From NCBI GenBank assembly GCA_017610205.1, contig JAFCCL010000006.1:58553-122552 (forward strand): a stretch of DNA of 64,000 bases, given 5' to 3'. Source of the stretch: Candidatus Iainarchaeum sp. (GTDB lineage: Archaea > Iainarchaeota > Iainarchaeia > Iainarchaeales > GCA-2688035). Numbering within the stretch: the first letter of the stretch is position 1; every line of letters starts with the position of its first letter. Under the pieces are notes generated by a model. The model had not been told where the DNA came from, searched no databases, and saw only the letters and a program-made list of their open reading frames with translations. This document shows, piece by piece, positions 254 through 54,369 of this stretch. Made by a program: the position numbers and the translations under genes.

Positions 254-1290
254 GTAAAACAGCAAGTGGAACATATGAAAGGGTGTGCAAAACAGTCTGC
301 GAAATTGTTCCACAGGAAAGAAGAGTTGCAAAAGTTTTTCCAAAGCTTAAGTATGCTGGCATAAAAGAAAATTTTGATGTCTGGATTGGAAAAAGAATGA
401 TTTTGGTTTTCTTTGCAGGAGTAATTGGATTTCTTTTGCCTTTGGCTCTTGGAAGATACTTTGCATTTCTTGACTTTTCAGCCTTTGTAATGCCTTTGTT
501 TGAAGCAATAGGTCTTGGAATTGCTTTTGCACTTGCAGCAGTGCTTGCAGTTTACCTTCATCTTTATTACACAATTGAAGGCCGTGCTTCAATGGTTGAA
601 GCAATTTTGCCTGACTTTTTGATGCTTGTAGCAAGCAATATTAGTGCAGGAATGACTCCTTTTTCAGCATTTAGGGAAGGTGCAAGGAAAGAATTTGGGC
701 CTTTAAGTGAGGAAATAAAAATTGCTTCTGCAAAAAGCCTTGGAACAAAAAGCTTTGGACTAGCCCTAAAACAGCTTACAGTAAAAATAAATTCAAAGAT
801 TTTGAGGGAAACAGTTTCATTCTTTGCACAGTCTCTGAAAAGCGGAGGCAAGCTCTCAAAGCTTCTTGAAACAAGCGCCCTTGACTTAAGAAGGACACAG
901 GAAATGAAAAAGGATTTGGCTTCAAGTACAAGAATGTATATAATGTTTGTTGCATTTGTAATAGTAATCGCAACCCCATTGCTTTTAGGAGTATCAATTC
1001 AATTCCTTGAAATGATTTCCACTGTACAGGGAGAGCAATTGTCACAGGGAAGCCAAGGAATTTCAAGCGTTACGTTTCTTTCATCAGAATTGAATGTAAA
1101 ACCAGCCTTTATGCTAAACCTTTCCTATATTTTGCTTACTGGAAATGCAATTCTTGCATCGCTCTTTATAGGAGTTATTGGAGGCGGAAAGGCAAAAATG
1201 GGCTTAAGATATACTCCTGCAATTCTAATTTCCTCAATAATTGTGTTTGTTTTCCTTGAACAAATTCTTAATTCAATGTTTGGAATTTAA
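250..1290 (+). CDS. Type II secretion system F-domain (TadC-like) pilus assembly membrane protein
   Basis: Start at ATG 250 after a GGTGA RBS. Motif ILPDFLMLVASNISAGMTPFSAF...EFGPLSEEI...SGGKLSKLLE and multiple TMs. Confidence 0.85.
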   Translation: MSKTASGTYERVCKTVCEIVPQERRVAKVFPKLKYAGIKENFDVWIGKRMILVFFAGVIGFLLPLALGRYFAFLDFSAFVMPLFEAIGLGIAFALAAVLAVYLHLYYTIEGRASMVEAILPDFLMLVASNISAGMTPFSAFREGARKEFGPLSEEIKIASAKSLGTKSFGLALKQLTVKINSKILRETVSFFAQSLKSGGKLSKLLETSALDLRRTQEMKKDLASSTRMYIMFVAFVIVIATPLLLGVSIQFLEMISTVQGEQLSQGSQGISSVTFLSSELNVKPAFMLNLSYILLTGNAILASLFIGVIGGGKAKMGLRYTPAILISSIIVFVFLEQILNSMFGI

Positions 1291-1475
1291 ATTAATCAAA
1301 CTTGCTCAAAAAGTAAGTATTTAGTTGGGTCTATCTTCAAGGCTCAGAAATGCGTTAAAACTGCCAAAATTGAAAAATAGCACTCAGTGACTAAATACGT
1401 ACCTCAAAAAAAAGCTTTATATAGAAGAAAACACTAATTAAAACCAGTTTTATTAAATTAAACGGAGGGAAAAAG

Positions 1476-1934
1476 ATGAAGTTTAAAGGTCAAGGGACAA
1501 CAGAATATCTGATAATCCTTGCAGTTATAATTGTAGTTGCATTGGTTGTTGTCGGCGTAATGGGCTGGTTTCCAGGACTTGGAACAGGCATTACAGAAAG
1601 CCAGAGCAAAGCATACTGGAAAAGCGCTTCGCCAATAGCAATAACCGACTGGAAAATCACAGGAACTGCAGCAGATGCCACATTCTCTTTACAGAATCTG
1701 ACAACCGACAAAATATCGGTTACTGAGATAACAATTGATGGCGCAGCAATTGGATTGGCAGACGTCAACATTGCAGCAGGAGACACCAACGGAAGCGTTA
1801 CAGGCTCAACAGGCATTGCATGCTCAAGCGGCTCAAGCTACCAATACAATATATCAATAAGCTATGATGTTGTAGGCGGAATTTCAGGCAAGACCGAAAC
1901 AGGGCAAAAGCCATTAGTTGGAAGCTGTCCATAA
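1476..1934 (+). CDS. Archaeal type IV pilin with class III signal peptide
   Basis: MKFKG/QGTTEYLIILAVIIVVALVVVG: KG|Q cleavage site, Glu at +5, hydrophobic helix. GGAGG RBS; next to the TadC genes. Confidence 0.9.
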   Translation: MKFKGQGTTEYLIILAVIIVVALVVVGVMGWFPGLGTGITESQSKAYWKSASPIAITDWKITGTAADATFSLQNLTTDKISVTEITIDGAAIGLADVNIAAGDTNGSVTGSTGIACSSGSSYQYNISISYDVVGGISGKTETGQKPLVGSCP

Positions 1935-1953
1935 AAAAAAGTGTTTTATTCAA

Positions 1954-1990
1954 TGGGAAGCATTGTACTTCCCACTATTTTTCATTTTGT
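1954..1990 (+). terminator. Hairpin plus T-tract after pilin
   Basis: tgggaag...cttccca stem followed by a T-rich run. Confidence 0.5.
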
Positions 1991-2011
1991 TAAATTTAAG
2001 TAGGCTATATT

Positions 2012-2308
2012 CTAAAATATTGAAAAACCCATAAAAATAAAGTAAGCATAGAAAAACACCTGCGCAAGAATTAATGCAGACGAAGTAAAAATTGTCGACT
2101 TCCTGTTTTTTGAAAACCTTTTAACAAAATTCAGCAATAGTACAATAAGAAAAAGAATTAATGGAAGTGAAAGAATAAAAATGTTCAACACCCACTTTTC
2201 AGGAATTCCCCAAACAAACCAAGTTGAAATTATCTTGTAGGCAAAATTTACCCCAGGCAACACAGCCAGAAAAGAAATTACTATAAAGGCAAGGTTTAAT
2301 TTTTTCAT
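2012..2308 (-). CDS. Small hypothetical membrane protein
   Basis: 98 aa, three hydrophobic segments, fills the intergenic gap. Confidence 0.6.
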   Translation of the reverse strand: MKKLNLAFIVISFLAVLPGVNFAYKIISTWFVWGIPEKWVLNIFILSLPLILFLIVLLLNFVKRFSKNRKSTIFTSSALILAQVFFYAYFIFMGFSIF

Positions 2309-2347
2309 TCAAAAAAAGAAAAGGAACAAAACCTATTTAATTGAAAT

Positions 2348-2365
2348 GCCTCAGTCCGCCCATCT
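2348..2365 (-). repeat. Direct-repeat copy of the 3' end of C/D sRNA-1 (att-like)
   Basis: gcctcagtccgcccatct, identical to 4699-4716. Confidence 0.85.
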
Positions 2366-2396
2366 TATTTGAAAGATGAAGATTTAATTCCATTTT

Positions 2397-2846
2397 TTAA
2401 GAGTTCTTGGATTTAACGATGTCTTTTGCTTTTTCAATGAATTTTTCCGCTTTGTCATATAACTCGCTTAGGTTTTCCTCAAACTTCACTCTTGTGACAT
2501 TGTATTGAACTTCCTGTCTTAGTCCCCTCAACAAATCAAATAATGATAAGTCCTCTGAGCTGAGCATTCCTTTTTCGCTGAATTTTTCTTCCAGGTATTT
2601 CTGCAGGCAATAGTGGCTTTTCTCCTTTACTCCATGCAAATAAAGTATTGCTCTTGCTGCATGAAAAGCCGCATTGTACATTGCTATTGCAGCCATCTCT
2701 TCCTTTTTAATGTTTATTAAATCAAAACTTTCATTCAGAAAAAATTCAGCTTGTGCAAGATCCTGCAATGCAAGCCTCTTGCTTTTAGTGGTTTTCTTGA
2801 GTAATCCTTTCTCAAAACAATCATCAACCTCAGTCAAGTTCTTCAC
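2397..2846 (-). CDS. HEPN domain protein (toxin of an MNT-HEPN pair)
   Basis: AMYNAAFHAARAILY...KSH...LRQEVQY; overlaps the MNT gene. Confidence 0.85.
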   Translation of the reverse strand: MKNLTEVDDCFEKGLLKKTTKSKRLALQDLAQAEFFLNESFDLINIKKEEMAAIAMYNAAFHAARAILYLHGVKEKSHYCLQKYLEEKFSEKGMLSSEDLSLFDLLRGLRQEVQYNVTRVKFEENLSELYDKAEKFIEKAKDIVKSKNS

Positions 2847-3387
2847 CTTCTAAGACAATTGATTTAGCCCTTATTTGCTGCAACAATTCTGTTTTCTCTT
2901 TTTCCATTAAATCAACTTTGCTTTTAGTCAACGTAATTAACTGCACATCTCTTTTTAGCTGGTTACTCAGCTCTCTTTTGATTTGGCTTATTAAAAGCGA
3001 ATCTGGCTTTTTTTTAAAATAAATTGCCAAATCAATATCACTGTCACCAGTCATTTTTCCGGTCGCAGCACTGCCAAACAAGTAAACGCCTAAAGGCCGT
3101 AACTTGACCAAGTTTTTAAATGGCCTGGTTATTGTGATTTCATGCACAAGAATAGTTCTCAGTATGCTTGTCGTTAGAGGATTATTATAATTCAGACTGA
3201 AAATTTTTCGGTTCTTTTGTTTTGCCACCACAACAATTTTTTTTAGTGCAAGCTTTGTCATTATTTTGTGAACAGTACTTGGAGCAAGACCTGTTTTTTC
3301 AGCAAGCTCTCGCAGATAGTATTTCTTATTCAAAAGAAGCTCTAATAGTCGAAATGTGCTTTCATTAAGAAAATCAATATTACCCAT
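2830..3387 (-). CDS. HTH-fused minimal nucleotidyltransferase (MNT antitoxin)
   Basis: N-terminal wHTH (YLRELAEKTGLAPSTVH) and YLFGSAATG...DSDIDLAI. Start taken at MGNID. Confidence 0.85.
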   Translation of the reverse strand: MGNIDFLNESTFRLLELLLNKKYYLRELAEKTGLAPSTVHKIMTKLALKKIVVVAKQKNRKIFSLNYNNPLTTSILRTILVHEITITRPFKNLVKLRPLGVYLFGSAATGKMTGDSDIDLAIYFKKKPDSLLISQIKRELSNQLKRDVQLITLTKSKVDLMEKEKTELLQQIRAKSIVLEGEELD

Positions 3388-3445
3388 GTAATAATACCAA
3401 ACGTTCATATATAAAAACGTTTCGTTCACACAGAAAAACAATAAA

Positions 3446-3463
3446 GCCTCAGTCCACCCATCT
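3446..3463 (-). repeat. Direct-repeat copy of the 3' end of C/D sRNA-1 (att-like)
   Basis: gcctcagtccacccatct, 17/18 identical to 4699-4716. Confidence 0.8.
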
Positions 3464-3505
3464 CTCTCGAAAAATGAAGAAAGACTTACAAGACCTTGAA
3501 AAGCA

Positions 3506-3736
3506 TTATTTTAGAAACTTAGCCAGTTCTTCAATGTCAAGGTTAGCTTGCCTTAGAATGGATTTCATTGTACCTGTTCTAATCACTTGTTTCAAAGGAA
3601 TAATAACAGTAAGCTTTCTTCCGCTTGCAAATTTCCTGAGCTTTACATGACTCCCCCTCTGCTTGACAGATTTAAAGCCAGCCTTCTCCAAAGCTTTAAT
3701 TACTTCCTTTCCTGAAAGAACTGGAAACTTAGGCAC
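3506..3736 (-). CDS. hicA: HicA family toxin
   Basis: LSGKEVIKALEKAGF..VKQRGSHVKL...GTMKSILRQA. Confidence 0.9.
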   Translation of the reverse strand: MPKFPVLSGKEVIKALEKAGFKSVKQRGSHVKLRKFASGRKLTVIIPLKQVIRTGTMKSILRQANLDIEELAKFLK

Positions 3737-3938
3737 AGGCTTTCACTTCAAAAGTAGTGACAAAAGGAGCAATATCTGAAAGCTTTATGTCCTTCTTGTC
3801 TTCCAAATAGAGTTCAACAGCCTCTTTCAAATTAGCCAGAGCATCTTCTATTGAATTGCCTTGCGAAGCAACATCAAGCTCAGGGCACAAAGCAACATAC
3901 TCGCCCTCTTCTTTACTAATTACTGCAGATAATCTCAA
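3729..3938 (-). CDS. hicB: HicB family antitoxin
   Basis: YVALCPELDVASQGNSIEDALANLKEAVELYLE; TTG start with AGGTGA RBS. Confidence 0.9.
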   Translation of the reverse strand: MRLSAVISKEEGEYVALCPELDVASQGNSIEDALANLKEAVELYLEDKKDIKLSDIAPFVTTFEVKACA

Positions 3939-4079
3939 AATATCACCTAGTATATTTAATGGATAAACAGTATAAAAAAAGATTTGTTTCCCACCAATTT
4001 AACTCTAAAAATGAGCTCAGGCGTGCAATATGGTAGAAAGATAATATTTAATTGTTTAAGATGCATCATTCTGTTAAAG

Positions 4080-4679
4080 ATGACTCCGAAGAAAGCAATT
4101 AGAAAAAGAGAAGCTAGAGTAACACAAAATCTGAAAAAAACGCTTGCGAGATTAAGACCGAAGCTGAAACCTTTCTTAGCAAATCCAAAACCCATAACTG
4201 TCGAACAACTTCGAGCAGGCGACATACTATTTTTTAGGCCGAAATCTGATTCAGCTATTATAAGAAAGTGCCTTGCATATGGACACCCGTTTTCGCACAT
4301 GGCACTCTACATTGGAAATGGTAAAATGTTTAATTTGGCAAAAACCGCAAGACTGCCACTGGCCGAAACCGTGTTAGCAACTTATGGGGCACCCTTTGTT
4401 TTAAGACCGGAAATTACTAAGAGGCAAACAGAAAAAATTGCTGAAAAAGCAAAAGAGGCTGTTGGAGAAAAGCATAATAAAAAAGTAGAGAAGATGGTTC
4501 AGCTAAGCGAATTGACAAACATCGGATTCAAAAAAGCAAGAACCAAAGGATTCAACTGCACAAATGTAATATCATTTATTTTCTCAGAAGCAGGAATGGA
4601 CGTGACACCAGGGGTGCATCCTCTAAGAGCCGGACCCTCACATTTCCTCCGAAACAAAAGACTCAGAAGAATAAACTAA
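4080..4679 (+). CDS. Permuted papain-like NlpC/P60 (YiiX/YebB-like) protein with a basic N-terminus
   Basis: LRAGDILFF...FSHMALYIGNG...FNCTNVISFIF (His precedes Cys); very K/R-rich. Confidence 0.7.
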   Translation: MTPKKAIRKREARVTQNLKKTLARLRPKLKPFLANPKPITVEQLRAGDILFFRPKSDSAIIRKCLAYGHPFSHMALYIGNGKMFNLAKTARLPLAETVLATYGAPFVLRPEITKRQTEKIAEKAKEAVGEKHNKKVEKMVQLSELTNIGFKKARTKGFNCTNVISFIFSEAGMDVTPGVHPLRAGPSHFLRNKRLRRIN

Positions 4680-4698
4680 CCCAATAAAAATATTCACA

Positions 4699-4761
4699 GC
4701 CTCAGTCCGCCCATCTTTCTTCATTGCTTGCGCTCTGTGTCATCGTCAGTTCATCATCGGC
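4699..4761 (-). ncRNA. C/D-box guide sRNA (sRNA-1)
   Basis: Minus strand: gccg ATGATGA(C) actgacgatgaca CAGA(D') gc-gcaa-gc a ATGAAGA(C') aagatgggcgga CTGA(D) ggc. Terminal gcc/ggc stem; 12-13 nt guides. Confidence 0.8.
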
Positions 4762-4869
4762 AATTAAATTGTACTGCGAATGGCTTTAAAGAATAGGTAT
4801 TCTTACAATTTTAGAGGCTACCACGCCTCTCGGTTATCTTTTAAAGAAGTTTTAAACCCATTTTTTTTA

Positions 4870-6261
4870 ATGCTAACTGTAATGAAGTTTGGTGGTAGTA
4901 TTCTTTCAAGCGAAAGCCAGCTTAAGCGGGTTACCCAAGTTGTTAAAAAGCGCAGGGAACGGGAAGATGTTTTGATTGTTGTCTCTGCATTGAAAGGGGT
5001 TACCAATTCTCTTATTGGGATTGCAAACAAGGCACTTGAAGGCAGCGACTTCAAAGAAGAATTTGTAGCAGTAAAAAAACTGCATCTTGAAATGCTTTCA
5101 GGCATCAAAGCCAAGAATTATGTGAAAGAGACTGAGAAAGGGCTGCTTGAAGAGTTTTCTCTGCTTGAAAGGGCACTGCAGGGAATTTTGTGCCTTAAAG
5201 AGCTTTCTCCGAGAAGCCTTGATCTTGTGCAGACAGCGGGAGAGAGACTATGTGTTTTGCTTCTATTCGCCTATCTTTTGGATGAAAACATTCAGGCAAT
5301 TGCCTTTGACGGAAGAAAGCAGGGCATTGTAACAAACTCTGATTTTGGCAGAGCTAGGCCTTTGATGGATGAAACCAAAAAAAAGCTGGAAAAAACGAAG
5401 GGATTTGTACACAGCAATGTCCTGATTTTCCCAGGCTTTTTTGGAGTTGACAAGCAGGACAATGTTGTCAGCTTTGGCAGGGGTGGCAGTGATTTCAGCG
5501 CAGCAATTCTTGCAAACTTGTTCAGAGCAAACTCCTTGGAGTTGTGGAAGGACGTTGATGGCTTTTTAACCAGCGACCCAAAAATTGTTGAGGATGCTGT
5601 GGTTTTGTCAAATCTGAGCTACGAGGAGGCGGAGGAACTTGGCTATTTTGGGGCAAAAATCATTTACCCGCGAACAGTGGTTCCCTTGAAAGAAAAGGGT
5701 ATCAAAATCGTGATAAAAAACATCCAGAAACCTGACAAAATTGGAACAATTGTAAGTAATGAAAGACTTGAACAGAAGATAGTGGCCAAGTCAATTGCAG
5801 TCAAGAGAAACATTGCGAGCATAACACTAAGAAGCCCTATCTTTGTTGGTCAGGCAGGCGTTCTGGAAAAAATCTTTTATGAAATCGCCAAGGCTAACAT
5901 AAGCGTTGGCCTTGTTGCAACAAGCGAAACTGGGATTTCTTTCACAATTGACGAAAAAAGCCTGCCAAGGACAAGGGAAGCCATTTCCAGAATCGGCCTG
6001 GTTCTCGAAGAAGCTAGCTTTGACAAGGATCTTGCAATGGTGGGAGTAGTTGGAGAGGGGCTGAAGAAAAAACCTGGGGTAGCAGGATTTGTGTTTGGCT
6101 GCCTTGCAGAAAACAAGGTAAACGTTGAAATGATCTCTCAGGGAAGCAGTGGAATAAACATTTCTTTTATAATAAAAGAAAGTGATCTGCACAAAACAGT
6201 AAAGGCACTTCACAAGAAAATAATACAAAACCCAAAGATGAAAAATAGCCTTATTAAGTAA
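4870..6261 (+). CDS. lysC: Aspartate kinase with ACT domains
   Basis: VMKFGGS, VVSALKGVTN, FGRGGSDFSAA, WKDVDG, two C-terminal ACT domains. Start taken at ATG 4870. Confidence 0.92.
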   Translation: MLTVMKFGGSILSSESQLKRVTQVVKKRREREDVLIVVSALKGVTNSLIGIANKALEGSDFKEEFVAVKKLHLEMLSGIKAKNYVKETEKGLLEEFSLLERALQGILCLKELSPRSLDLVQTAGERLCVLLLFAYLLDENIQAIAFDGRKQGIVTNSDFGRARPLMDETKKKLEKTKGFVHSNVLIFPGFFGVDKQDNVVSFGRGGSDFSAAILANLFRANSLELWKDVDGFLTSDPKIVEDAVVLSNLSYEEAEELGYFGAKIIYPRTVVPLKEKGIKIVIKNIQKPDKIGTIVSNERLEQKIVAKSIAVKRNIASITLRSPIFVGQAGVLEKIFYEIAKANISVGLVATSETGISFTIDEKSLPRTREAISRIGLVLEEASFDKDLAMVGVVGEGLKKKPGVAGFVFGCLAENKVNVEMISQGSSGINISFIIKESDLHKTVKALHKKIIQNPKMKNSLIK

Positions 6262-6445: not shown

Positions 6446-6688
6446 GTGGGAAACGTGACAATTACCCTGGAAAATGAGGACGAGGAAACCCTTAGGTCAA
6501 TTGCCGGAAGCAAGTATAATAATAAAAAAGGCTCTTTGGCAAAAGTAGTCGGTGAGTCTATAAGACTACTTTCCAGCAAAACCGGAAAAAACAAGGCAAT
6601 GAAGAGGCAGTTCAAGTGGATGGACCAAGGATTTAACCTAGGAAAAATAAAAGTAAAGAACAGAGGAGAAATATATGACAGAAAGTAA
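6446..6688 (+). CDS. Putative VapB-type antitoxin (RHH-like)
   Basis: MGNVTITL... and C-terminal GFNLGKIKVKNRGEIYDR typical of archaeal VapB; overlaps the PIN gene. Confidence 0.75.
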   Translation: MGNVTITLENEDEETLRSIAGSKYNNKKGSLAKVVGESIRLLSSKTGKNKAMKRQFKWMDQGFNLGKIKVKNRGEIYDRK

Positions 6689-7115
6689 GGAATTGAAGCT
6701 TCTTGATTCAAACATCTTGGTTTACGCTTACGACAAAAGCGAGACAAAAAAGCATCCGATAGCAAGAGAACTTGTTAAAGAAAGATGGAAAAAAGAAGAT
6801 TCGGTTCTAAGCATTCAAAACCTGGCAGAATTCTATTCAGTTATCACAAGCAAAATAGAGAGACCTTTGGAGATTGACAAAGCAAAGCAAATTGTCTTAG
6901 ATTACATTGACGGCTTTGAGATACTAGGATACAACGAAAAAACAATCTTGGAAGCAATTAATGTGCAAGCAATTTACAAAATTCCTTTCTGGGACGCATT
7001 AATAGTTGCCACAATGGAAGAAAACAGCATTGACACAATAATAACAGAAAACGAAAAAGACTTCAAAAAAGTCAAGTGGATAAAAACAATAAACCCGTTT
7101 AAAAAGGCAGAATGA
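6675..7115 (+). CDS. vapC: PIN-domain toxin (VapC)
   Basis: LLDSNILVYA...QNLAEF...FWDALIVA...TENEKDF. Confidence 0.9.
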   Translation: MTESKELKLLDSNILVYAYDKSETKKHPIARELVKERWKKEDSVLSIQNLAEFYSVITSKIERPLEIDKAKQIVLDYIDGFEILGYNEKTILEAINVQAIYKIPFWDALIVATMEENSIDTIITENEKDFKKVKWIKTINPFKKAE

Positions 7116-7132
7116 AACAACAACAAAAAAGT

Positions 7133-7169
7133 TATATTACCCTTAATACTCAAGGCTAATTGTCAGATT
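7133..7169 (+). repeat. Imperfect 37-bp direct repeat, right of the VapBC pair
   Basis: Second copy of 6317-6353. Confidence 0.7.
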
Positions 7170-24739: not shown

Positions 24740-24828
24740 GTCACATCCTATTGTGCGAGTGATAACGAGCATATGGCATCGAGCGCCGTTAGGCGTGAAG
24801 ATGGCATTCGCACTCGCGGGGCGTGACC
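24740..24828 (+). ncRNA. Putative structured ncRNA/leader immediately 5' of tRNA-Ile
   Basis: GC-rich island with nested stems gtcac/gtgac, gcgagtg/cactcgc, catc/gatg and cgcc-gtta-ggcg. Confidence 0.45.
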
Positions 24829-24830
24829 GC

Positions 24831-24904
24831 GGGTCCGTAGCTTAGTCTGGCAGAGCATTGGTCTTATACACCAAGGGTCAGGGGTTCAAATCCTCTCGGA
24901 CCCA
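24831..24904 (+). tRNA. tRNA-Ile(UAU)
   Basis: Acceptor stem GGGTCCG/CGGACCC plus A; anticodon arm ttggt-ctTATac-accaa; T-loop GTTCAAAT. Confidence 0.9.
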
Positions 24905-54304: not shown

Positions 54305-54369
54305 TAGGCAATGATGAGGTTAACACCTGCTGACCGAAAGGAATGACGATTAACTCAACTCTGAGCCTA
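54305..54369 (+). ncRNA. C/D-box guide sRNA (sRNA-2)
   Basis: taggca ATGATGA(C) ggttaacacctg CTGA(D') cc-gaaa-gg a ATGACGA(C') ttaactcaact CTGA(D) gccta; terminal stem taggc/gccta. Confidence 0.88.

Follow-up and report, generated by a model that had tools for sequence, protein, structure and literature searches.

A box C/D small RNA gene as a probable attachment site for tandem gene cassettes in Iainarchaeales

We analyzed a 64,000-nt stretch of DNA from Candidatus Iainarchaeum sp. (hereafter the window; source contig JAFCCL010000006.1 of a 1.37 Mb assembly in 24 contigs, coded G000) and found that the 3′ end of a box C/D small RNA (sRNA) gene is probably a site-specific attachment site, downstream of which gene cassettes would integrate and stack. 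In the window the intact gene heads two tandem cassettes, and displaced copies of its 3′ end bound each of them. An earlier interpretation made from the letters alone, the sequence-only reading, had proposed that the C/D sRNA gene is an integration site, and comparative genomics supports this proposal: a Fic unit occurs in three contexts, gene content varies at a syntenic site and 32 arrays were counted in genomes of the order. Genes in the window were called with Pfam profiles at curated cut-offs, and positions are collected in Table 1.

The sRNA gene is 63 nt long. Read along the minus strand from 4761 to 4699, it consists of GCC, box C (GAUGAUGA), a 13-nt spacer, box D′ (CAGA), a hairpin (GCGCAAGC), box C′ (UGAAGA), a 12-nt guide (AAGAUGGGCGGA), box D (CUGA) and GGC, with GCC and GGC forming the terminal stem. 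This is the layout of an archaeal box C/D RNA, with box C (RUGAUGA) and box D (CUGA) close to the termini, C′ and D′ boxes inside and guides of about 12 nt, and a TTTAAAG seen by eye about 29 nt upstream may be its TATA box. Orthologues with identical guides occur in at least 16 genomes. When 16 full-length copies from 16 genomes were aligned, both guides and all four boxes were found to be conserved, and the terminal stem and the internal hairpin carried compensatory substitutions. Across nine pairs, 85.4% of alignment cells are paired compared with 58.1% in shuffles, none of 500 being as high, eight of the pairs have changes on both sides, and a control in which the partner was slid by 1–3 columns gave 33–48% paired; the structure was derived from the same sequences that were tested for pairing, which favors it.

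Because no ribosomal RNA (rRNA) is assembled in G000, the 16S rRNA of relatives was searched for guide targets. The D′ guide (CUGACGAUGAC) is the exact complement of GGUCAUCGUCAGCUCG, in the helix-34 region, in five of the six relatives whose small-subunit rRNA was fetched, and has two mismatches to the 16S of the sixth. The core of the D guide (GAUGGGCGG) forms a 9-nt pairing with the decoding-center sequence CCGCCCAUC, within the stretch ACACACCGCCCAUCAAGCC, in all six. The fifth-nucleotide rule predicts that the base selected by the D guide is the fourth of CCGCCCAUC. It aligns with the starred C in the E. coli sequence CCGC*CCGUCA, at nt 1397 in the 1537-nt E. coli 16S copy used; in standard numbering this base would be C1402, which is 2′-O-methylated in E. 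coli. Fibrillarin is encoded on contig C16 of G000 (267 bits). Rfam returned weak matches to the archaeal C/D families sR2, sR18 and sR1, all below the gathering score, the best being sR2 (26 bits against a cut-off of 42). Because the guides and boxes are conserved, the stems covary, the 16S targets match and fibrillarin is present, we conclude from these sequence comparisons that the sRNA is a real, conserved and probably functional archaeal box C/D sRNA. The sequence-only reading had placed a complete C/D sRNA at this position and strand and had asked for its guides to be mapped to rRNA; it is borne out on both points.

A strict pattern search of G000 returned one other C/D candidate, at about 54308–54367 (+) of the window (G000:C10:112863). 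It reads GGC AAUGAUGA ... CUGA CCGAAAGG AAUGACGA ... CUGA GCC, with a hairpin in the style of the focal sRNA, and no repeat of its 3′ tail was found anywhere else in G000. A genome scan had been suggested beforehand, for further duplicated sRNA tails and for tyrosine recombinases: recombinases are present (see below) and the sole other C/D candidate has no duplicated tail.

The last 18 nt of the sRNA gene (AGATGGGCGGACTGAGGC), made up of the final 10 nt of the D guide, box D and the 3′ half of the stem, occur in three minus-strand copies in the window. The copies at 4699–4716, within the gene, and at 2348–2365 show no mismatch, and the copy at 3446–3463 shows one, a C to T change relative to the sRNA. 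Both positions and the orientation had been read correctly from the sequence; the single-base difference had been missed. No further window copy was found at up to three mismatches, 100 dinucleotide-preserving shuffles of the window gave no match (chance expectation 0), and a reversed-pattern control returned 0 matches across G000. The whole assembly holds five copies at up to two mismatches, the two outside the window lying 1411 bp apart on contig C1, where they flank a Fic cassette. All five stand at cassette boundaries, indicating that the 18-mer is not the dispersed motif that would have spoken against integration.

Measured from repeat to repeat, the window copies delimit 1253 bp (cassette 1) and 1098 bp (cassette 2). 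The Pfam genes fall between the repeats in the two blocks that had been predicted, with HicA, MNT and HEPN scoring clearly, HicB weak and NlpC/P60 just under its cut-off. The prediction of integrase-less cassettes of about 1.1–1.25 kb also holds, no integrase being found in or beside the arrays examined. As with integrative elements, the repeats are direct, reproduce the 3′ part of the gene, bound the inserts and leave the sRNA gene intact. Upstream of the 18-mer, about 20 more nt are common to the two partial copies and are not shared with the sRNA.

Cassettes are discrete units that occur in different contexts. On contig C1 of G000, a copy of the 3′ half of the sRNA (C′-like box, guide and box D) directly follows a HerA-like gene, and after it come a 1.41-kb block encoding a winged helix-turn-helix (HTH)–Fic protein and then a second copy of the 17-nt core of the site (GATGGGCGGACTGAGGC, hereafter the 17-mer). 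The same Fic cassette follows MNT-HEPN in the congener G004, at the locus syntenic with the window, and follows a glycosyltransferase cassette in G047, a member of a different family. In a three-way alignment, similarity runs from the left 17-mer to just past ...GACTGAGGC, and the flanks are unrelated. The Fic cassette is also found in the arrays of G171 and G070, and the G171 array holds two MNT-HEPN cassettes. HicBA with its terminal site (3446–3994) is 75–83% identical in six loci of five other genomes, and in at least three of these loci its partner is a 156–160-aa protein without a Pfam family, not NlpC/P60. The NlpC/P60 part of cassette 1 has no counterpart in any fetched locus. As a separate observation, the HerA-like ATPase upstream of the C1 cassette (G000:C1:1970–5068) is 1032 aa in G000 and 516 aa in G004 (L036, G004:C20), and the extra part in G000 reads by eye as an intein with a homing-endonuclease domain.

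Content is variable at the syntenic site. Conserved between the window and G004 are the ABC-F gene (83%), the sRNA (81%), the MNT-HEPN cassette (92% identical over 1042 bp) and the flank with the membrane protein and a pilin (window 1456–2379, 85% identical). Nothing at the syntenic G004 locus corresponds to window 3390–4682, where the NlpC/P60-like gene, HicBA and the sequence upstream of MNT lie, and the G004 Fic cassette has no counterpart at the window locus; the insertions and deletions fall at the repeats or within about 60 nt of them. Gene order therefore varies among the relatives compared, as the sequence-only reading had anticipated, G004 lacking the HicBA block and carrying the Fic cassette. 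Other cassettes lie beside the same ABC-F flank in G002 and G003, and single-copy sRNAs occur in G054 and G049, at loci whose synteny was not established. The same unit in different contexts, together with occupied and unoccupied sites, is the pattern left by integrative elements.

Arrays of this kind are widespread. At up to two mismatches the 17-mer was found in 39 of 61 relatives and in 109 of 196 genomes searched across the order. Among 37 fetched loci (the window, contig C1 and 35 from relatives) we counted 32 same-strand arrays in 28 genomes, with 57 intervals: nine of 74–105 bp, 46 of 322–2359 bp and two of 4.1 and 5.4 kb. The G171 array has 12 sites and 11 intervals over 9.7 kb. Open reading frames (ORFs) of at least 60 aa, mechanically called, are co-oriented with the sRNA in 71 cases and opposite in 16. 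The array head is the full sRNA with the same D′ guide in 11 loci whose contig includes the start, whereas the C/D sRNA heading the G032 array differs in its D′ guide; G171, G133 and G070 have a full or 5′-truncated sRNA copy in this position. Five genomes (G171, G133, G070, G125 and G120) have a copy that runs from the D′ guide onward without box C, followed by cassettes or by a mini-unit; the box C position of these copies reads GUGUUCA, AUGUUCA or GUAAUCA. In G171, G133 and G120 the same contig also carries, nearby, an intact sRNA whose terminal stem is longer and lineage-specific, and the copies without box C may be decoy attachment sites that spare the working gene. Other heads are the HerA-adjacent half-copies in G000 and G004 and a gene-end copy in G004:C55.

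Cassette ends share more than the core. Over 48 ends, the consensus has an arm of about 30 nt, TGTAAnTAAnnCyTCATCTTTCrrrnAA, directly before the 17-mer. The arm lies outside the search pattern, is conserved across families and includes the inverted repeat CATCTT-N6-AAGATG, which cassette-end site 2 of the window also carries. The end sites are about 95% identical in sequence, and the left ends of the cassettes are unrelated to one another. The cargo is mostly of toxin–antitoxin or defense type, as is typical for cassette platforms, and comprises HicAB, MNT/HEPN, Fic, PIN, PemK with a ribbon-helix-helix (RHH) protein, MazE with DUF4258, an AbiEii-like nucleotidyltransferase, MqsA/MazE-like zinc-ribbon proteins, a GT2 glycosyltransferase, a methyltransferase, small secreted proteins and many proteins without a family. 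The 5.4-kb unit encodes an ArsR regulator, a protein of about 886 aa (a P-type ATPase by eye) and a 563-aa membrane protein; Pfam confirmed only ArsR and a CBS-domain protein in it. By eye, TATA-like motifs are present in the cassettes' own upstream regions. In viral contigs the exact 17-mer had 0 matches. A degenerate pattern gave 32 there, none with sRNA or arm context, and these were judged to be chance or unrelated.

A dispersed structured repeat of about 60–90 nt, ending in the hairpin AGCCGGGCGTGACGGCT, was noted alongside the arrays. It has 18 copies in G000, at window 24777–24830 (+), G000:C24:5131, C1:6725 and 15 other places, and two of them abut tRNA 5′ ends (window 24817, beside the tRNA at 24831–24904, and C24:5131). 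In relatives the same repeat forms the ORF-less units of 74–105 nt between the sRNA and a second 17-mer, in G004, G011, G033, G142, G152, G153 and G157, where it is tandemly duplicated, and possibly in G125, where it aligns poorly. Its 3′ hairpin covaries between genomes; it matched no Rfam family, and no TnpB gene adjoins it.

We infer that a tyrosine recombinase acting in trans moves the cassettes; a clade encoded directly downstream of the sRNA in G124 and G136 is the best candidate. The two genomes are from different families. In both, a gene for a tyrosine recombinase begins about 50 nt past the 3′ end of the sRNA, in the same orientation (a 413-aa ORF in G124 and a 447-aa open frame running off the contig end in G136). 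The proteins share 61% identity, no other match in the 196 genomes exceeds 42%, and the intergenic sequence between sRNA and integrase, ATGATGAWAGACTAAC...TTATAAAGG, is conserved. The site together with the downstream core TGATGAWAGACT occurs in 5 of 215 genomes; in G123 and G168 the contigs end there, as expected for strain-variable insertions. The G124 integrase is also encoded, with 100% identity, on a 9.7-kb metagenome contig (L092). A search for close relatives returned only the source contig among genome contigs and L092 among metagenome contigs, the rest being at most 40% identical.

G000 itself encodes a XerA-like protein and three tyrosine recombinases of 396–455 aa, and it has a further, broken one; no serine recombinase was found in it. 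Two of these large integrases begin some 50 nt downstream of tRNA-Arg and tRNA-Ser genes called by ARAGORN, the same layout as that of the sRNA-adjacent integrases; the third follows a sequence that reads by eye as an intron-containing tRNA and was not called by ARAGORN. The catalytic domain of a G000 integrase matches 158 of 196 genomes and is uninformative for distribution, and the other tyrosine recombinases of the array-rich G004, G171, G047 and G015 are not near arrays. No copy of CATCTT-N6-AAGATG was found outside cassette sites in G000, and an involvement of Xer and dif is neither supported nor excluded. A 296-aa protein of a G001 cassette with an integrase-type left-end motif was considered and proved unrelated to integrase. 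Two further observations concern recombinases of the order. A tyrosine recombinase of about 480 aa lies beside a ScpA-like gene (by eye) in G047 (L148 2988–5189) and G015 (L149 1875–4080), of different families; the neighboring genes are homologous, and the pairing looks chromosomal rather than mobile. At G004:C11:865–2925 the matches of the XerA-like recombinase to the Phage_integrase and IntI models are split into pieces inside a 721-aa frame, which suggests an insertion, possibly an intein.

Several observations weigh against cassette integration at the sRNA gene. All genomes compared are metagenome-type assemblies, in which repeats can produce mis-joins, and the conservation of the 17-mer is partly by construction, as that pattern found the sites. 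There is no recombinase within about 3.5–5 kb of the arrays listed. The sRNA-adjacent integrase clade has no homologue above 42% identity in G000, G004, G171 or G047 and none at E 1e-40 in G001–G005, the array-bearing genomes searched being 79–92% complete. On L092 no attR-type repeat was found, neither a second copy of the site at up to four mismatches nor a convincing direct repeat. As single-stranded DNA, the arms of the two window sites do not fold significantly (z −0.36 and +1.39). The same cassette is about 75–93% identical between genomes and duplicates within a genome are 77–94% identical, and this divergence gives no sign of recent movement. Because the within-genome duplicates differ to this extent, they are neither assembly artefacts nor very recent copies.

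This divergence of duplicated cassettes speaks for an alternative in which there is no dedicated system and homologous recombination or gene conversion between dispersed 17–45-nt repeats shuffles, duplicates and exchanges the blocks. The repeats are direct and of that length, and the arrays have no linked recombinase. We consider this unlikely, as it leaves unexplained the same end of about 45 nt on unrelated genes, the start of arrays at the sRNA or a copy of it and the presence of one unit at three unrelated loci with base-exact boundaries; the integrases at the sRNA site in G124 and G136 also speak against it. The conserved arm and the position of the copies, directly after the stop codons of co-oriented genes, could instead mean that the partial copies are RNA elements of the cassette transcripts that mark operon ends, either as a 3′ end, terminator or stabilizer or as a decoy of D guide and box D. 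In Pyrobaculum, C/D sRNA genes can overlap mRNA 3′ ends (PMC6009581). The partial copies cannot form a C/D K-turn because boxes C and C′ are missing, the window copies show no significant fold, and identical units across contexts and presence/absence polymorphism at or near the repeats would remain without explanation. We therefore regard a role as RNA elements as less likely still, although it and recombination are not mutually exclusive.

IS200/IS605 elements have subterminal hairpins at both ends and 4–5-nt targets and insert 3′ of a fixed sequence. The cassettes, too, lie in a specific orientation 3′ of a fixed sequence, and G000 contains seven Y1-transposase (Y1_Tnp) and four TnpB matches. 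It is nonetheless very unlikely that the cassettes are non-autonomous elements of this single-strand, Y1-transposase type. They have no conserved left-end hairpin, their left ends being unrelated and the right-end folds in the window not significant; no TnpA or TnpB gene lies near the arrays; and 17 or more identical nt on both sides of each unit are a signature of conservative site-specific recombination, not of a 4–5-nt target. Unidirectional arrays of short, toxin–antitoxin-rich cassettes with up to 12 sites per contig recall an ordinary integron, here as attC clusters without integrase. Archaeal integrons and integrase-less attC clusters have been reported from metagenome genomes, including Nanoarchaeota (10.1101/2022.02.06.479319). 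This explanation is likewise very unlikely. Neither IntI beside attI nor attC structure with a GTTRRRY core was found, attC being judged by its core motifs: GTTRRRY occurs at 3 of 48 cassette ends (2 in control stretches) and GTTRRRY with RYYYAAC at 1 of 48. The integron integrase model TIGR02249 reached its cut-off in none of six genomes (best 131.6 bits against 265), its matches skip the IntI-specific insert region, and sites that are about 95% identical are unlike attC sites.

For integration at the sRNA gene we suggest the following mechanism. The attachment site would be some 17–21 nt of the gene, comprising the distal D guide, box D and the stem. The cassettes would be small non-autonomous units of 0.3–2.4 kb with mostly toxin–antitoxin or defense-type genes, each bringing a copy of the 17-mer preceded by the arm of about 30 nt. 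Upon integration the sRNA would be rebuilt at the head, and its displaced 3′ fragment would come to lie at the distal end of the cassette, where it could be the target of the next insertion; integron-like tandem arrays would therefore build up downstream of the gene. In the window, two such insertions would account for the NlpC/P60-like–HicBA and MNT-HEPN cassettes between the sRNA and the chromosomal flank.

A broader proposal, to which we would give slightly less than even chances, is that this order of small-genome archaea possesses an IntI-independent, integron-like gene-capture platform at an essential guide-RNA gene for 2′-O-methylation of the 16S decoding center. Its attC-like cassette ends of about 45 nt would mimic the 3′ end of the guide RNA, and a trans-acting tyrosine recombinase would insert, excise and reshuffle the units; this recombinase could be encoded by the host or reside on an unbinned element. 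Selection on the guide would keep the attachment site invariant across families, and the same cassettes could therefore circulate between distantly related hosts.

In mechanism, the closest known systems are the tyrosine-integrase elements that target the 3′ ends of tRNA and transfer-messenger RNA (tmRNA) genes, including the archaeal classical (pNOB8-type) integrases (PMC8371274). Common to both are an intact small-RNA gene at one end, a displaced 3′ fragment at the other and direct repeats, and, in G124 and G136, an integrase about 50 nt downstream on the same strand, as at tRNA genes. The target here differs, being a box C/D methylation-guide sRNA gene, and the units are 0.3–2.4 kb in size, lack an integrase and stand up to 11 deep. 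The accessible part of the same review of archaeal tyrosine recombinases names tRNA genes, intergenic regions and protein genes as targets and does not mention sRNA genes (PMC8371274). In organization, the closest systems are integrons (IntI/attI/attC), including the archaeal ones of Ghaly et al. 2022, a paper that concerns IntI/attC systems (10.1101/2022.02.06.479319). Both have a fixed insertion point heading a unidirectional array, cassettes mostly of one or two genes that each end in a site, common toxin–antitoxin cargo and the same cassette across arrays and positions. In contrast to integrons, there is no IntI and no attC architecture here, the 17-nt core is identical with the target, the insertion point is inside a functional RNA gene rather than beside intI, and the cassettes have their own upstream TATA-like motifs.

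Streptococcal cis-mobilizable elements are integrase-less, flanked by att sites and accrete in tandem beside integrative elements, and the pdif modules of Acinetobacter plasmids depend on Xer and have pdif sites that alternate in orientation. Like the cassettes described here, both are small recombinase-less units between sites, presumably mobilized in trans and often carrying toxin–antitoxin genes; they differ in domain of life, target and site sequence. Unlike pdif sites, all sites here are direct, and G000 contains no second dif-like copy. Mobility of C/D sRNAs is described from Pyrobaculum, where they are duplicated, composite, transposed and MITE-like (resembling miniature inverted-repeat transposable elements), and insertion into sRNA genes is not described in the available part of that study (PMC6009581). 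Partial or permuted C/D sRNA copies at new places are found in both cases; in Pyrobaculum the sRNA moves, whereas here the sRNA stays and foreign cassettes gather at its 3′ end. A 2021 review of archaeal C/D sRNAs states that mobile features of such genes remain to be discovered. The remark of the sequence-only reading that it knew of no earlier description agrees with the open-access literature searched, in which we found no description of an sRNA-gene target combined with cassette arrays.

If true, integration at the sRNA would mean that C/D guide-RNA genes join tRNA and tmRNA genes as a class of attachment site. DPANN-type archaea would appear to collect and exchange toxin–antitoxin and defense genes on a cassette platform without integron integrases. 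The site, with its 17-nt core and 30-nt arm, is short, invariant and testable; it could help to discover recombinases and might become a genetic tool for these uncultivated lineages, and the repeats would offer a simple annotation marker for accessory-gene hot spots in metagenome-assembled archaeal genomes.

Table 1. Positions of the sRNA gene, cassettes, flanking genes and array heads
Feature	Location	Positions	Strand	Basis or remark
Intact box C/D sRNA gene, head of cassette array	window	4699–4761	−	sequence, orthologues, covariation, 16S targets
attB-like core	window	4699–4716	−	identical to cassette ends
Cassette 1 (NlpC/P60-like, hicB, hicA)	window	3464–4698		Pfam
NlpC/P60-like ORF	window	3984–4679	+	NLPC_P60 22.6 bits, cut-off 23, weak
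hicB	window	3729–3938	−	HicB-like, weak, E 0.0055
hicA	window	3506–3736	−	HicA 60.5 bits
Cassette-end site 1: partial sRNA 3′ copy 3446–3463 and arm TCTTCATTTTTCGAGAGA	window	3446–3484	−	consensus over 48 ends
Cassette 2 (MNT, HEPN)	window	2366–3445	−	Pfam
MNT	window	2830–3441	−	winged HTH and NTP_transf_2
HEPN	window	2397–2846	−	HEPN 54.7 bits
Cassette-end site 2: exact partial copy 2348–2365 and arm TCTTCATCTTTCAAATAA	window	2348–2386	−	repeat search
Upstream chromosomal flank: aspartate kinase, divergent from sRNA	window	4780–6261	+	Pfam AA_kinase and ACT
Downstream chromosomal flank: 98-aa membrane protein	window	2012–2308	−	orthologue after last G004 site
Arrays headed by full sRNA	G004:C32, G047, G015, G001, G059, G003, G008, G002, G011, G033, window			
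sRNA copy without box C	L080 (G171)	4862–4934		
sRNA copy without box C	L081 (G133)	7080–7157		
sRNA copy without box C	L082 (G070)	882–954		
sRNA copy without box C	L103 (G125)			
sRNA copy without box C	L107 (G120)	268–346		

A further gene pair was noted near the locus. With no 17-mer flanking it, a small antitoxin-like ORF and a PIN-domain protein (Pfam PIN, 52 bits) occupy window 6446–7115 (+), between the aspartate kinase and ABC-F genes on the opposite side of the sRNA.

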